Source of the DNA: Candidatus Poribacteria bacterium
GTDB taxonomy: Bacteria > Poribacteria > WGA-4E > WGA-3G
Assembly (NCBI GenBank): GCA_965246985.1
Contig: OZ251998.1
Location: 6,505,657-6,569,656 of the forward strand
Length of the DNA: 64,000 bases
Direction: 5' to 3'
The notes under the pieces were generated by a model. That model was not told where the DNA came from, did no database searches, and worked only from the letters and a program-made list of their open reading frames with translations. Positions 27,833-40,621 of the stretch are shown here, one piece after another. Made by a program: the position numbers and the translations under genes. The number at the start of each line of letters is the position of its first letter. The stretch's first letter is position 1.

Positions 27833-28136
27833 TAGACATTATAATGGTTTAATTGTGTGTTTGTTCATCCATTTTTTTGGTAAAATCGCGGAGACCTACT
27901 CCTAAACGACAACCGTTAGGAGACCTCTCTTTGATAAAGGTTCTACGCGTCGCGCGAACTTTTAGTTTCCGCGGTATACGCCACAAACTAAAAGTTTGTG
28001 CTACAAGGTACGTCTTTGATAGACGAGAGACGAGAAACCTTTAGGGCGGACGAGAAGTCTCAACTGAACTGACGTTTATACCGATACCCCTAAAAGTTAA
28101 TTTACACAACATGTTCTTAAATCGTTATAACGTCTA
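27833..28136. mobile_element. MITE (family with TAGACATTATAA terminal inverted repeats) flanked by two degraded copies of the Cys-rich gene
   Basis: Ends are tagacattataatggtttaattgtgt… and …gttcttaaatcgttataacgtcta. The about-45-bp ends match the 35228-35419 element and the interior differs. One side (27752-27829, minus strand) reads …YCNNNVPDGSVTCDGADSQGNCHNR*, a Cys-rich tail fused directly to the 5' leader. The other side abuts the stop codon of copy B. Confidence 0.5.
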
Positions 28137-28529
28137 ATATGTATCACCTTTCTCATGACAAGGATTTTCAGTTCCTGTACCACAGCTGCTATCACTACAA
28201 CCACTGCCACAGCTATATGAGCCAGTCGAATTGTTACAGTTAGAATCTGCGACACAATCACAAGACGCGTCTGTTTGATCATCATTGTCTAAGCAGCTGC
28301 AACTATAAAAGTTAGATACTTGATCGGTGCTGCCACAACAGCCGCCTGTAGTTGCAGCGACTAAAGTTGCATCGCCGCCACCACAGCATCCTTTCGCTGC
28401 TTCAGACTCTGAGGTGTCCCAACTGCCTGTCAGGAAGAAAATACAACTACCAATTAAATCATACCAGCGGATGTTGTTTTTGTCAATTTTTTTAAGAGAA
28501 ATTAAAGTGTTTTCTTCGGAAACTTTACA
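28134..28529 (-). pseudogene. Cys/Gly-rich small secreted protein, cassette copy 1, lacking a start codon and part of the signal sequence
   Basis: Frame open from an upstream TGA: …KKIDKNNIRWYDLIGSCIFFLTGSWDTSESEAAKGCCGGGDATLVAATTGGCCGSTDQVSNFYSCSCLDNDDQTDASCDCVADSNCNNSTGSYSCGSGCSDSSCGTGTENPCHEKGDTY*. It has no in-frame ATG/GTG/TTG. Compare the intact paralogs at 34769-35227 and 40133-40621. Confidence 0.5.
28458..28486 (-). promoter_or_regulatory. near-consensus sigma-70-type promoter (TTGACA-17-TATGAT)
   Basis: The minus strand reads TTGACAaaaacaacatccgctggTATGAT. It lies within a block that recurs at 36240-36305. Confidence 0.4.
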
Positions 28530-28658
28530 TCATTGAGGCGCAAGGAGCCGGGAGAGCAAGTTTGGTGTAAGGGTTGGGTGACCCAACCCCTACGAGATCA
28601 GAAACTTCATCAAATCGCGCCTAAAAGAAGTAGGTATGGCGCAAAGAACGTAAGTCCG

Positions 28659-29003
28659 CTAATCCACTAAAGAGATAACCCCTTTCTTGCGTTGGAGTAC
28701 GGCATCGTAGAACCGCATCGTGCCAACGCAGTCTTGGATACTTGATACCGGTTCCCGGTTCTCACGAATGGCGTTAACAAACTCGGTGAGACTGATGCCG
28801 TCGCCGGTCAGTTCGCCGTTGCGTTCATCAGAGAAATTAGAGGTAAAGGTATTACCAGATTCGGTGAAATGCTGAGCACCCCACAACCCATCTAAAACAA
28901 TGTATTCGTGTTGTCCAGTAATTTCGATGTAATCGTAGTTACGCCGCCACAACCGTTGGCTGCTGAGTTGCCTGCTGTAATGCCAAGCAATGTTAGCCCC
29001 CAT
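28659..29003 (-). pseudogene. ectopic duplicated 3' fragment of the Gfo/Idh/MocA oxidoreductase gene (43256-43560)
   Basis: The 114-aa ORF is nearly identical to the last roughly 100 aa of the 43256-44203 protein (…SQRLWQRNYDYIEITGQHEYIVLDGLWGAQHFTESGNTF…LQRKKGVISL). The downstream hairpin gtaagggttgggtgacccaacccctac is copied too (28567-28595 vs 43222-43250). A solo IS630-like end (cttcatcaaatcgcgcc, 28602-28618) abuts it. Confidence 0.7.
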
Positions 29004-37922: not shown

Positions 37923-37923
37923 G

Positions 37924-40080
37924 TTATAAATAGGGTTTCATGTCCCAAAGCAGAACGGTACCATCATAACTGCCACTTGCCAGATATTTGCCATCGGGTG
38001 AAAAAGCAAGTCTATCAATATCAGTAGGGTGTGCCCAGAAGGTAGCGATATTTTCGCCTGTAGCAGTTTCCCACAACCGGATAGACATCTTTGTTTGTCC
38101 TGCTTGCCACCATGCACCAGCGGCAAGGTATCGACTACAAGGGGAAAACGCTAACGTGAAAGGTTTCTGACATCCTGCGGGAGGTATGATCACCATTTTT
38201 GTTTCTAAGGTGGTAGCATACCACACTCTAATCTCATTCTGCATTGCCCCAGCAATAAAAGTGCCGCAAGGAGATACTTGAAGTCCTCGGATGCGTCGAG
38301 ATAGAGTTTCCTGATGTTCACGAACACCCTGAATATCTTGTGGTTTCCCTCTATAGCGGGTCGTATCTAAGCATATTTCTGTGGGAAGTACTCCAACTTG
38401 TTCACCACTTTTGAGATACCAGACAAAGGCCCCCTCTTCGTACCCACTAGTGAAAAAGTGCTTGCCGTTGGGATGAAACCGCAACTGTGTCCCAAACATC
38501 AACGCTCTCCCAGAACGTTTAAAATTTTTAAGGGGAGATTCATAGAGATATTCCCATTTTCGGGCATCCCAGACGCTAACACTTTCCTTGTGGAGACTGA
38601 GTAAATATTCACCAGTCGGAGAAAACACTGTCATCCGGAACCCTTCCGACAGCGACTTCCCCGCCTCGGTGAGTTCTGTAACTTGCGCGCCAGACGATAC
38701 GTGCCAAACCTTGGCATGGCCTGGGTTCATACTACTCACAAGATATTCACCAGTCGGAGAAAGCGTCAACCAGGCCACTTGCCAGGAAACTTCAAGGAAC
38801 TCGGCAACTTGCGTCTCAGAGGGTATATCCCAAACCCTAATAGGACTGTCCGTTGTGTTAGCGGTAGCTATTCGTTCCGCATCACGCGACATCGTGAACA
38901 CCATATTCGGATGCGGCGCACATTCATCTGATTTTTGTGGAAATGTCCGTGCTATCTGCCGCCGCGAAGCATCCCAAGCAAGGAAACCTACGCGTTTCCA
39001 GTATCCACAGAAAAGTGTCCGACTGTCCTTAGAAAAAACCAGTGTGCTGGGGAATCTTTCTACAGGGTCAGGGTGTAAATGTCCAGGCAGAGATACAACT
39101 TTTGAGGGGGAACCTTCTGTCCACACGTGAAGATTGTCGTATCTACTCACGGTTGCGAAACGTCTGCCATCAATGGAAAAGCAAGCTGCCCCGCCGGTTC
39201 CGCCTAAATATTCAAAGGCATCTACCTTCTCCTGTCGCTTCGCATCCCAGAATGCTACCTCTTTTTGATAACGCGTGGCAACCCGTAAGGTGCCATCAGA
39301 TAGGTAGGTTGGCAGCAACCGATCACTCAGATACACTGTTGGTTCCATTTCTAAGGCACCGCTGCGGATATGCCAGATGTGAACTTTGTCCTTCCTATTA
39401 CACCCCGCAAGATACTCCCCGCAAGGTGAAAAGACCAATTCGGTGGCCCCTATAGCAGGTCCTTCGGTATATGTGTCAGGAAATTCCGAAAGGATCTCGC
39501 CTGTCTCTATATCCATCACAGATGTCATATTGTAGTCGGACGTGTAGGCGAATAAACGACCATCAACAGAAAATGCTGCTGAGGTTGCAGAGTACACCCG
39601 CGGTATTCGCGTAAAATCGAAGTTTGCAACAGGCGTAGTCGTGTCCGCACGCCAGTCGTAAACAGCAATCGATGTAGCAGTCAACGTAAAACAAATCAAA
39701 GCTAAGTGATGCCCATCTGGTGAAAAAGTAATATAGTTACCAGCAGGTTGGAGTGGCTCTATTTGAGCAACACAGTGTAAGTTTTGTGTGTCCCATACCT
39801 TCACGATATCATCCCAGTTTCTGGTAGCAATCCACTGTCCATCATGAGAACAGGAGATGGCAGAAACCATCCCCCGTTCTGTTGCCCACAACGCACTTGG
39901 CGTTAGCGTATCAAGATCATACCACCAACAACCAATATCTGTCGGAACAATAAGTGCTTCACCATCACTGGAAAATATCAGCCCTCCACGGTTACGACCT
40001 CTCCCTAAGCGGGCAGTCGCACCCGCAGGGAGTGCCCACCTTCTCACATCCGGACCATTCATCTGTATCGTGTATTTCAT
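37924..40080 (-). CDS. cytoplasmic WD40 beta-propeller protein, cassette copy 3 (718 aa)
   Basis: N-terminal W-x-LPAGA-x-ARLGRG module and many WD repeats, ending …ASGSYDGTVLLWDMKPYL. The stop is 1 nt before the permease start. Confidence 0.8.
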   Translation of the reverse strand: MKYTIQMNGPDVRRWALPAGATARLGRGRNRGGLIFSSDGEALIVPTDIGCWWYDLDTLTPSALWATERGMVSAISCSHDGQWIATRNWDDIVKVWDTQNLHCVAQIEPLQPAGNYITFSPDGHHLALICFTLTATSIAVYDWRADTTTPVANFDFTRIPRVYSATSAAFSVDGRLFAYTSDYNMTSVMDIETGEILSEFPDTYTEGPAIGATELVFSPCGEYLAGCNRKDKVHIWHIRSGALEMEPTVYLSDRLLPTYLSDGTLRVATRYQKEVAFWDAKRQEKVDAFEYLGGTGGAACFSIDGRRFATVSRYDNLHVWTEGSPSKVVSLPGHLHPDPVERFPSTLVFSKDSRTLFCGYWKRVGFLAWDASRRQIARTFPQKSDECAPHPNMVFTMSRDAERIATANTTDSPIRVWDIPSETQVAEFLEVSWQVAWLTLSPTGEYLVSSMNPGHAKVWHVSSGAQVTELTEAGKSLSEGFRMTVFSPTGEYLLSLHKESVSVWDARKWEYLYESPLKNFKRSGRALMFGTQLRFHPNGKHFFTSGYEEGAFVWYLKSGEQVGVLPTEICLDTTRYRGKPQDIQGVREHQETLSRRIRGLQVSPCGTFIAGAMQNEIRVWYATTLETKMVIIPPAGCQKPFTLAFSPCSRYLAAGAWWQAGQTKMSIRLWETATGENIATFWAHPTDIDRLAFSPDGKYLASGSYDGTVLLWDMKPYL

Positions 40081-40132
40081 ACATGCCTCGTCCGTTTATA
40101 GTGAAAACACTTTACTGCATGTCTGCCGGTTA

Positions 40133-40621
40133 TTAATCCTTGCTACACCCGTCATTGTCCCCCGAGCAACCATACCTGTCGTTATCCTTCGAACAAATGG
40201 TCGCAAAATCATCTTCATTACACTTGTTTCCATCAGGCGAAGGACCACACTTCTGGCCCGCACAATTGTTAGGTTCGGTGTCAGAACAAATTTCCATGTC
40301 TGTATCCCCGCCACAATTGCTTGATTCACTACAATGACCGCAGTCAGCGTTTTCATTATTAGTATCAAGACAGTTACAGGTGTAGGTACAGGAGGGACCT
40401 TTGTGGTTACCAGAGCCAGATGCTTTATTGGTTCCACCACAACAGCCGCCTGTCGTTTCAGCGACTAAAGTTGCCTCGCCGCCACCACAGCATCCTGTCG
40501 CAGCTTCGGTCTCCGAGGCATCCCAACTGCCTGTCAGCAAGAAAATACAGCCACCTACAAACAGCAAGGTGATCATTAAGTTTCCGATGGTATTCTGGTG
40601 GGTTTTCAACATTTTAGGCAT
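40133..40621 (-). CDS. small Cys/Gly-rich secreted or membrane-anchored protein, cassette copy 3
   Basis: Start at MPKMLKTHQNTIGNLMITLLFVGGCIFLLTGSWDAS (ATG 40621), directly after GGGAAAGGAAAG. Conserved GCCGGGEA…TGGCCGG. The Cys-rich tail is unrelated in sequence to copy 2. Confidence 0.6.
   Translation of the reverse strand: MPKMLKTHQNTIGNLMITLLFVGGCIFLLTGSWDASETEAATGCCGGGEATLVAETTGGCCGGTNKASGSGNHKGPSCTYTCNCLDTNNENADCGHCSESSNCGGDTDMEICSDTEPNNCAGQKCGPSPDGNKCNEDDFATICSKDNDRYGCSGDNDGCSKD

Follow-up and report, generated by a model that had tools for sequence, protein, structure and literature searches.

Introduction

In the variable surface (lipo)protein families of bacteria, such as Vlp and Vsa of Mycoplasma and pilE/pilS of Neisseria, a conserved 5' region is followed by divergent mature regions. 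In polymorphic toxin/immunity systems, such as CdiA-CT/CdiI and Rhs-CT/RhsI, the N-terminal part of the protein is conserved and the C-terminal part fused to it is variable, with a variable partner encoded downstream, and the MacAB-TolC system exports the small disulfide-bonded enterotoxin STII. Here we analyse a locus with likenesses to all of these in Candidatus Poribacteria, unculturable symbionts that in high-microbial-abundance sponges are among the most abundant. The locus lies in a 64,000-nucleotide stretch of contig OZ251998.1 (assembly GCA_965246985.1), called the window below; all coordinates are those of the whole 64-kb window. It consists of three cassettes, each with a gene for a small cysteine-rich protein and, downstream, a gene for a large WD40-repeat protein. 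The cysteines in the C-terminal tail of this small protein do not change, whereas the intervening loops evolve at the neutral rate or faster, and related strains carry unrelated modules of tail, WD40 protein and permease at the same chromosomal site.

The genetic logic of the locus resembles that of polymorphic toxin-immunity loci and of conotoxin-like families, although no defining biochemical feature of either was found. With the toxin/immunity systems it shares the conserved N-terminal and variable C-terminal parts, breakpoints at their junction, a variable downstream partner, modules in tandem or as orphans, and strain-specific replacement at a fixed locus. It differs in that neither the tail nor the WD40 protein has a recognisable toxin or immunity domain, and in that there is no large delivery apparatus; instead we find a tiny, apparently anchored protein with an anionic, cysteine-scaffolded tail and a partner of 700 residues. 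With conotoxin/defensin-type superfamilies it shares a conserved N-terminal targeting region, invariant cysteines, loops with a ratio of nonsynonymous to synonymous substitution rates (dN/dS, or omega) of at least 1, and multigene expansion. Those are eukaryotic secreted peptides of 10-50 residues, whereas the present proteins are bacterial, have an ectodomain of ~110 residues with 16 cysteines, are probably anchored and are paired with a WD40 protein, so that the likeness is one of evolutionary mode only and not of homology.

The variable surface (lipo)proteins offer a further parallel, in their conserved 5' untranslated region and N-terminal coding region, divergent mature part and several tandem copies, some of which lack a 5' end. 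In contrast to those families, no invertase, phase-variable repeat or silent-cassette mechanism is seen here, the truncated copy is an ordinary pseudogene with a transposable element in it, and the lipobox is not conserved in the family. As in the MacAB-TolC/STII system, a MacB-type permease is encoded together with a small cysteine-rich extracytoplasmic protein and, in the ancestral locus, an outer-membrane protein; here, however, the permease has no ATPase domain, no ATPase or adaptor gene lies nearby, many cassettes have no permease, and nothing marks the small protein as a permease substrate. The FeoB-associated cysteine-rich membrane protein (PF12669) is also small, with an N-terminal transmembrane helix and then a Gly/Cys-rich stretch, but differs in length, genomic context and the 12-cysteine tail. 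Bacterial metallothioneins of the SmtA/BmtA type are cytosolic and have no membrane segment, unlike the small protein, whose transmembrane segment is strong. An earlier reading of the window, the original prediction, had been concerned with the three small genes; it makes no mention of what is most informative at the locus, namely the partnership with a WD40 gene and a permease, control by sigma-54 and the swapping of modules.

Results

Frozen cysteines and changing loops

The original prediction proposed diversifying selection on the tails and a comparison of dN/dS by region. We estimated dN/dS by the Nei-Gojobori method, pooled over six ortholog pairs and with bootstrap confidence intervals (CI). 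The pairs were window copy 3 with locus L016 and copy 2 with L012 (comparison loci carry L numbers), and L002/L011, L005/L009, L007/L008 and L018/L021. The N-terminal anchor gave 0.23 (CI 0.14-0.36), the whole tail 1.25 (CI 0.87-1.88) and the non-cysteine tail codons 1.48 (CI 1.01-2.26), while the aligned cysteine codons of the tail were unchanged in 67 of 67 cases, despite a dS equal to that of the rest of the tail. For the neighbouring genes the same pairs gave 0.31-0.44 (WD40), 0.13-0.15 (permease) and 0.04-0.08 (GFO oxidoreductase). These values show that the cysteines are frozen while the inter-cysteine loops change at or above the neutral rate. Such a contrast is what one sees under diversifying selection, or at the least when a functional scaffold bears unconstrained loops; the loop values exceed 1 by little. 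To this extent the proposal has support in silico. Pseudogene drift, which had been named as the alternative, is rejected as a general explanation by the conserved cysteine codons and the intact open reading frames (ORFs) of the orthologs, and applies only to copy 1 of the window, which is decaying.

Family, cysteine framework and predicted topology

A word-indexed search of 5.8 billion proteins returned 46 unnamed homologues (E 1e-10 to 3e-108), eight of them on one 171-kb contig, and a full HMMER profile search of 1.84 billion cluster representatives matched 43 clusters. All 13 loci found among 185,579 species genomes belong to metagenome-assembled genomes of Candidatus Poribacteria, as do all of the ~60 homologues compared, and the JGI metagenome collection holds four family loci only, from one project. 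The family is restricted to the Candidatus Poribacteria lineage. Viral contigs contain no member, and a phage origin was rejected on that ground.

The three window copies match no family in Pfam or NCBIfam. Among 47 aligned members searched against Pfam at E = 10, no EGF, LDL-A, TSP3, metallothionein or toxin family appeared, and PF12669 matched one member at a non-significant E = 0.41. A search of PDB sequences with the family profile returned nothing, even at E = 10; PADLOC gave only generic domain-level matches for the cassette proteins (AAA+/LolE-TM) and no known or candidate defence system; and literature searches on cysteine-rich or hypervariable proteins of Poribacteria and sponge symbionts turned up no account of the family. 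The original prediction had likened the tails to toxins, bacteriocin cores or metal-binding domains, and nothing identifies any of these.

In the alignment, the N-terminus MSKMLKTHQNTIGNLMIALLFVGGCIFLLTGSWDASESEAAKGCCGG is near-invariant in the main clade, and the cysteine columns of the tail are near-invariant in the family: C-x-C, then C-x-x-C, then eight more single cysteines. This framework of 12 cysteines, with the two G-C-C-G-G motifs before it, gives 16 in the ectodomain. Among 60 members of at least 130 residues the ectodomain count is 16 in 32 members (the mode), 17 in 10 and 18 in 7, and even counts exceed odd ones by 43 to 17. The tails had been described as unrelated in sequence, with 15-20 cysteines each. 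Neither statement stands: those of the window are 32-34 % identical to one another and share the family's cysteine columns, so that they are homologous, and they carry 13, 12 and 9 cysteines. Distant members retain the hydrophobic segment, the acidic linker, the CCGG motifs and the cysteine count, with no cysteine inside the anchor. At the lipobox position (residues 20-25) the main clade and window copies 2 and 3 read LFVGGC, in contrast to GGL, SGA or GTF in distant members; an invariant lipobox cysteine ([LVI][ASTVIG][GAS]C) is not a family feature, and lipoprotein identity was rejected for the family as a whole because distant members lack the anchor cysteine at the +1 position. There is also a divergent subfamily (L016 13594-14274; P0049, P0042 and P0066) with the same anchor and CCGG motif and a longer tail of SGNCDDS tandem repeats and a His-rich C-terminus (HGEHGPGHTHQW); its gene in L016 has no WD40 gene directly downstream.

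The hydrophobic segment TIGNLMITLLFVGGCIFLL has a maximum mean Kyte-Doolittle value of 2.14 over 19 residues, with Lys on its N-terminal side and Asp/Glu on its C-terminal side, from which the positive-inside rule predicts an extracytoplasmic tail. The layout suggested by the sequence features is that of a single-pass protein of 150-170 residues, of which about 11 basic residues would lie in the cytoplasm. A very conserved membrane anchor of 20-22 residues would follow, and outside the membrane an acidic linker, two (sometimes three) G-C-C-G-G motifs with a Thr/Ala-rich spacer and finally a tail of 65-100 residues, almost free of hydrophobic residues and built on the 12 conserved cysteines. 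The ectodomain is composed of 14.6 % Gly, 14.3 % Cys, 10.4 % Asp, 9.9 % Ser and 9.1 % Thr, with Asn also prominent and hydrophobic residues at ~11 %, and its mean net charge is -10.8. With so few hydrophobic residues no hydrophobic core is possible, and the domain must be held by disulfides or metals; the mostly even, fixed number of cysteines and the predicted outside location favour disulfides, most likely about eight of them. The exported, disulfide-rich tail of the original prediction is in this sense supported in silico. N-glycosylation, which a neighbouring STT3-like protein had brought to mind, was rejected: N-x-S/T sequons number 76 against 97 expected, and the STT3-like protein has no WWDYG motif.

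Module swapping at a fixed site

In other Poribacteria the ancestral order of the locus is MFS, GFO oxidoreductase, activator, 60-residue peptide, small protein, WD40 protein and permease, followed by a 342-residue outer-membrane protein, an 800-residue STT3-like GT-C protein, GT2 and fucokinase/pyrophosphorylase. Two stretches of locus L022, one spanning MFS, GFO and activator and the other in the STT3-like gene, are 93-97 % identical to the window. Between these flanks, the L022 small gene matches copy 2 at 96 % identity over its first 289 nt, which reach to the CxCL motif; beyond that point the tail, the WD40 protein (35-39 % amino acid identity to any in the window) and the permease are unrelated to those of the window. 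The upstream breakpoint of the swap falls inside the small gene. Copy 3 and L002 are similarly 95 % identical through the second GCCGG motif, with tails at 36 % and WD40 proteins at 38 %. In a comparison of 136 cassette pairs, the identity of the tails correlates with that of the WD40 proteins (rho 0.52), the tail always diverging faster, while the median identity of the N-terminus is 81 %.

Exchange also occurs on a finer scale. Copy 1 differs from L018 by 2.5 % in the anchor and linker, 9.5 % in the tail before the inserted element, 25.7 % in the last 74 nt of the tail, and only 0.2 % in the WD40 gene. Its tail is nearer to the allele of L021 (8.0 %) than to that of L018 (14.1 %), though L021 is the more distant genome. 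Such a pattern is beyond what drift can produce and indicates recombinational exchange of alleles. Together these comparisons show that one chromosomal site is occupied, in related strains, by [tail + WD40 + permease] modules with no relation to one another, and that finer tail alleles are exchanged as well. Hypermutation by a diversity-generating retroelement was rejected: the window ORFs scanned include no reverse transcriptase, a repeat scan of 24-43.5 kb found no second copy of a tail, and the alleles differ by indels too.

The three small genes of the window

The three copies are related and all on the minus strand, as originally reported, although copy 1 has proved to be a pseudogene with no start codon (Table 1). 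The anchor segment ...TIGNLMITLLFVGGCIFLLTGSWDAS and the two G-C-C-G-G motifs are indeed common to copies 2 and 3, while copy 1 (28134-28529), which is not a listed ORF, keeps only the distal half of the hydrophobic segment (...GSCIFFLTGSWD); its homology to the intact L018 ortholog begins at 28451. Its apparent stop codon is made by a 304-nt miniature inverted-repeat transposable element (MITE). At the DNA level copies 2 and 3 are 90 % identical over the first 156 coding nt and 96 % over the 168 nt upstream, far above chance, and then diverge abruptly. The whole proteins contain 18 (copy 3), 17 (copy 2) and 15 (copy 1) cysteines, and the nine in the copy 1 tail, counted like the others from the second GCCGG motif, become 12 when the MITE is removed. 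In copy 2 an insertion of 17 residues separates the GCCGG motifs. Copy 2 has its ortholog in L012, and that of copy 3, in L016, is 87 % identical. The copy 3 ORF is open over 40133-40639 and has two in-frame ATG codons, at 40621 and 40639; the start is most probably ATG 40621 (MPKML), since ATG 40639 falls inside the conserved Shine-Dalgarno stretch GGAAAGGAAAG and is not an open start in several paralogues.

Table 1. Positions of the cassette genes, mobile elements and upstream elements in the window.
Feature	Position	Strand	Description
Sigma-54 enhancer-binding protein	41502..42824	-	AAA+ plus HTH_8; Pfam Sigma54_activat 5.5e-65; NCBIfam NtrC/AtoC-like
Sigma-54 -24/-12 promoter	41386..41401	-	TGGCATGATATTTGCT; upstream of cassette 3
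60-residue single-pass membrane peptide	40835..41017	-	MIISRKPKRLKEWLPVAFLLVVGVVVC...CPYQ..CPYQ; GGAGG ribosome-binding site; first gene of cassette 3
Conserved leader	40622..40834	-	Hairpins, T-run, Shine-Dalgarno sequence GGAAAGGAAAG
Small protein, copy 3	40133..40621	-	Intact; 162 residues from MPKML; anchor, two GCCGG motifs and 13-Cys tail
Partner WD40 protein 3	37924..40080	-	718 residues; Pfam WD40 families; no signal peptide
MacB/FtsX-type permease 3	36660..37922	-	420 residues, no ATPase domain; starts 1 nt from WD40 stop codon
192-nt MITE	35228..35419		Terminal inverted repeat TAGACRTTATAAYG; exactly between Shine-Dalgarno sequence and ATG of copy 2
Small protein, copy 2	34769..35227	-	Intact ORF, 152 residues, 12-Cys tail; native ribosome-binding site displaced
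Partner WD40 protein 2	32596..34590	-	664 residues; 88 % identical to L012 partner
Permease 2	31303..32570	-	Split by frameshift: 31554-32570 and 31303-31581
Small protein, copy 1, 5' part of pseudogene	28137..28451	-	Start codon and first ~24 codons deleted
304-nt MITE	27833..28136		Splits copy 1; TA target duplication; same ends as copy 2 MITE
Small protein, copy 1, last 24 codons	27758..27832	-	CNNNVPDGSVTCDGADSQGNCHNR*; in frame, downstream of MITE
Partner WD40 protein 1	25479..27551	-	690 residues, intact; 5 of 2073 nt differ from L018 ortholog
Permease 1 remnant	24632..25492	-	Internal deletion; 14-nt overlap with WD40 stop

Cassette 3 is the only one of the three that is fully intact. 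The window concatenates three locus types, cassette 3 being like L016, cassette 2 like L012 and cassette 1 like L018. In cassette 2 the upstream 60-residue ORF (about 35600-35700, minus strand) is disrupted by a 19-nt tandem duplication (35625-35698), the permease gene is frameshifted, the outer-membrane protein gene is split, and a truncated STT3-like gene is joined to a 3' fragment of the GFO gene. Cassette 1 combines the anchor deletion and the MITE-split tail with an internal deletion in the permease gene; its WD40 gene is intact. The two MITEs have 14-nt terminal inverted repeats and an apparent TA target duplication, and no third copy occurs in the window.

Other mobile and duplicated sequence is present. 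An IS630-family transposase gene (DDE_3 plus a helix-turn-helix domain) lies at 7010-8206 on the minus strand, and the MITE ends do not match it; in L017 and L018 an IS1595 transposase lies directly upstream of the small gene. A 114-residue ORF at 28659-29003 (minus strand) is a copy, 86 % identical in nucleotides, of the 3' end of the GFO/IDH/MocA oxidoreductase gene (43256-44203), and the hairpin GGGTTGGGTGACCCAACCC accompanies the GFO 3' end at 28561-28593, 36372-36404 and 43212-43244. The copied 3' end and the hairpin mark the junctions at which the locus copies were concatenated. The putative outer-membrane protein gene (29879-31239) and its STT3-like neighbour (28892-29872), both on the minus strand, are respectively frameshifted and truncated in the window; they are full-length in L002 (13716-17153) and conserved beside the cassette in other Poribacteria. 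The putative outer-membrane protein has a His/Met-rich loop, HDHATGHHAHPVGTHEM, and matches no family, and the STT3-like protein matches TIGR04154 at 1e-13.

The WD40 and permease partners

Directly downstream of nearly every copy for which sequence is available, after about 30-200 nt, lies a WD40 gene encoding ~660-730 residues. This pairing is kept in the distant member of L020, that of L019 being the exception. The partner proteins carry the N-terminal signature W.LP.GA..R.GRG...TERG, have no signal peptide and match multiple Pfam WD40 families with E down to 1e-60. The AlphaFold2 model is all-beta, with about 58 strands and a mean predicted local distance difference test (pLDDT) of 69, and the nearest solved folds found by Foldseek are tandem WD40 propellers such as 2ymu and Apaf-1 (top E = 4e-33). 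The partner is predicted on this basis to be a cytoplasmic tandem WD40 double beta-propeller. Its two ends are conserved (residues 26-100 and 600-718, within the first ~100 and last ~120), in contrast to a variable middle. WD40 proteins of other subfamilies are encoded at 12676-13878, 13889-16021 and 49482-51434 (all plus strand), away from any small cysteine-rich gene. These three extra genes agree with the known WD40 expansion in Poribacteria, in whose genomes such domains are highly abundant; the pairing with a small gene was not reported there (Kamke et al. 2014, PMC3909097).

Permease 3 matches MacB_PCD (1.2e-39) and FtsX (3e-18) in Pfam and MacB (2e-52) in NCBIfam, and permease 1 is 97 % identical to it over 260 residues before the deletion. 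In the window, L012, L018 and L022 the WD40 and permease genes abut or overlap, suggesting translational coupling.

Upstream elements and control

The sigma-54 activator upstream of cassette 3 is found at the same position in L012, L016 and L022; its N-terminal ~110 residues match no known sensor domain. The promoter element in Table 1 is the only match to TGGCAYN5TTGCW in the 64-kb window, and the same element lies between activator and 60-residue ORF in L012, L016 (twice), L021 and L022. The 60-residue peptide precedes the small gene in the window, L002, L012, L016 (twice) and L021; it matches no family, is 77-92 % conserved in L002, L012 and L016 (twice) and has a dN/dS of 0.39-0.74.

The leader is 96 % identical to 35419-35586 and can be aligned across more than 20 paralogues from several genomes. 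A promoter scan found in it a promoter-like site, TTGAAA-N17-TATTTT (40679-40651). RNAalifold gave the conserved leader a weak consensus structure (-3 kcal), and a search of 24-44 kb against Rfam returned one sub-threshold chance match only. Near-perfect sigma-70-type promoters, each with an A-tract upstream, occur at 28486-28458 (TTGACA-N17-TATGAT) and 36255-36227 (TTGACA-N17-TATAAT), both on the minus strand. The former abuts the copy 1 remnant, the deletion having fused the promoter to the middle of the anchor. The tandem arrays of L001, L004 and L009 have the same sigma-70-type element (TTGACAAAAAT...TATCAT) ahead of their small genes, and the hairpin that follows it shows compensatory changes between locus types (GCAUCG/CGAUGC versus ACAUAG/CUAUGU).

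Discussion

What might the small protein do? We favour, at a probability of roughly 0.5, the reading that it is an exported, disulfide-rich and strain-variable determinant of the cell envelope under diversifying selection. The modules would be swapped by homologous recombination, whose upstream arm would be formed by the conserved leader together with the N-terminal coding sequence. The small protein would be exposed on the envelope or released, in an arms race or a recognition relationship with the host, phages or competitors, and the WD40/permease pair would probably act as its cognate handling or export scaffold.

Several observations weigh against this reading. The dN/dS interval of the whole tail includes 1 and that of the non-cysteine subset barely excludes it, so that relaxed constraint on the loops could also account for the values. 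We infer the export, disulfide bonding and surface exposure of the tail, and its anchoring rather than cleavage, from the sequence. AlphaFold2, given an alignment of 31 sequences, produced no usable model of the small protein (pLDDT 41; predicted template modelling score 0.16). Two of the three small genes in the window are damaged. Near the permease there is neither an ABC ATPase nor a membrane-fusion protein, and the arrays of L001 and L004 are entirely without a permease. Between copy 1 and L018 the tail has changed by about 14 % with no change in the WD40 gene; moreover the tail is predicted to be outside and the WD40 protein in the cytoplasm, so that a direct contact conferring specificity is hard to picture. 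This mismatch of compartments, together with the change of the tail alone, lowers our confidence in models of direct tail-WD40 specificity. In a bolder version of our reading, which we put forward tentatively and regard as doubtful, the locus would be a new kind of polymorphic two-compartment recognition module of sponge symbionts. A hypervariable, disulfide-knotted ectodomain, displayed or released, would be wired through the invariant anchor and N-terminal peptide to a cytoplasmic WD40 scaffold, inherited with it and diversified to the same degree, and to a MacB-type machine, forming a strain identity tag that is read by host, phages or sister strains and reshuffled at the anchor/tail junction.

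The modular build would also suit a polymorphic toxin or bacteriocin with its immunity protein, the N-terminus serving as export handle, the tail as a secreted antibacterial or anti-eukaryotic toxin, the WD40 protein as immunity protein or neutraliser, and the extra cassettes as orphan modules. The breakpoints at the junction of conserved N-terminus and variable C-terminus fit that design, as do the variable gene directly downstream in 1:1 pairing, the different modules at one site across strains, the tandem arrays, the WD40 genes with no small partner and the one 5'-truncated copy. We nevertheless consider it unlikely: Pfam, NCBIfam and PADLOC yielded no match to a toxin or immunity family, the strongly anionic tail is unlike membrane-active peptides, and a cytoplasmic double propeller of 700 residues would be unprecedented as an immunity protein and in the wrong compartment for a toxin exposed to the periplasm. 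The ~14 % change in a tail whose WD40 partner is 99.8 % identical counts against tight co-variation. Next in order of plausibility, and quite unlikely, is a role for the small protein within a complex of WD40 protein and MacB-type permease, as subunit, tether or sensor. The complex would be engaged in envelope transport or signalling, the anchor would dock in the permease, and the N-terminal peptide would be bound by the conserved terminal WD40 blades. Such a role would suit a conservation of anchor and N-terminal peptide that far exceeds that of ordinary signal peptides, and it accords with the conserved ends and variable middle of the WD40 protein and with the abutting or overlapping WD40 and permease genes; it leaves unexplained the ectodomain loops at omega of at least 1 on a frozen cysteine scaffold, and the permease is missing from many cassettes.

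Lower on the scale, and improbable in our view, stands a periplasmic metal- or calcium-binding protein, a metallothionein-like buffer or chaperone with cysteines and Asp/Asn-rich loops as ligands. An ectodomain that is 14 % cysteine, has CxC and CC motifs and is rich in Asp, Asn, Ser and Gly would be suited to this, the His/Met-rich loop of the neighbouring outer-membrane protein lends weak contextual support, and the activator belongs to the broad NtrC/ZraR class. Against it, Pfam (to E = 10) and NCBIfam returned no metallothionein or metal-binding family, thiols are normally oxidised at the predicted extracytoplasmic location, the transmembrane segment is strong, the cysteine number is mostly even with a mode of 16, and neither strain-specific replacement of modules nor loop omega of at least 1 is expected of a metal buffer. 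Least credible of all is a precursor of a ribosomally synthesised and post-translationally modified peptide, with a conserved leader and a hypervariable core rich in Cys, Ser and Thr that neighbouring proteins modify and export. Leader-like conservation before a variable C-terminal part, the many tandem paralogues and the ABC-type permease nearby recall such precursors, but the searches of NCBIfam and Pfam returned no leader of the NHLP, Nif11 or other families, neither the window nor any of at least 20 loci holds a gene for LanM, a radical-SAM or YcaO enzyme or a peptidase, the supposed leader is a transmembrane segment and the core has at least 100 residues, and one-to-one pairing with a non-enzymatic WD40 protein is unlike the logic of these systems.

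If the small protein is a variable envelope determinant, the locus bears on how Poribacteria strains are told apart, tolerated or attacked inside their host. Debate on this has so far turned on 'eukaryote-like' repeat proteins, WD40 among them, which were never placed in a genetic context; the locus gives a subset of the Poribacteria WD40 genes a near-constant small-protein partner. The frozen cysteine scaffold, the loops at omega of at least 1 and the swapping of modules between near-identical genomes have the signature of an arms race. They make the small protein a concrete candidate for a factor by which strains are recognised in an ancient symbiosis of animal and microbe, and its ectodomain may represent a new disulfide-rich scaffold.

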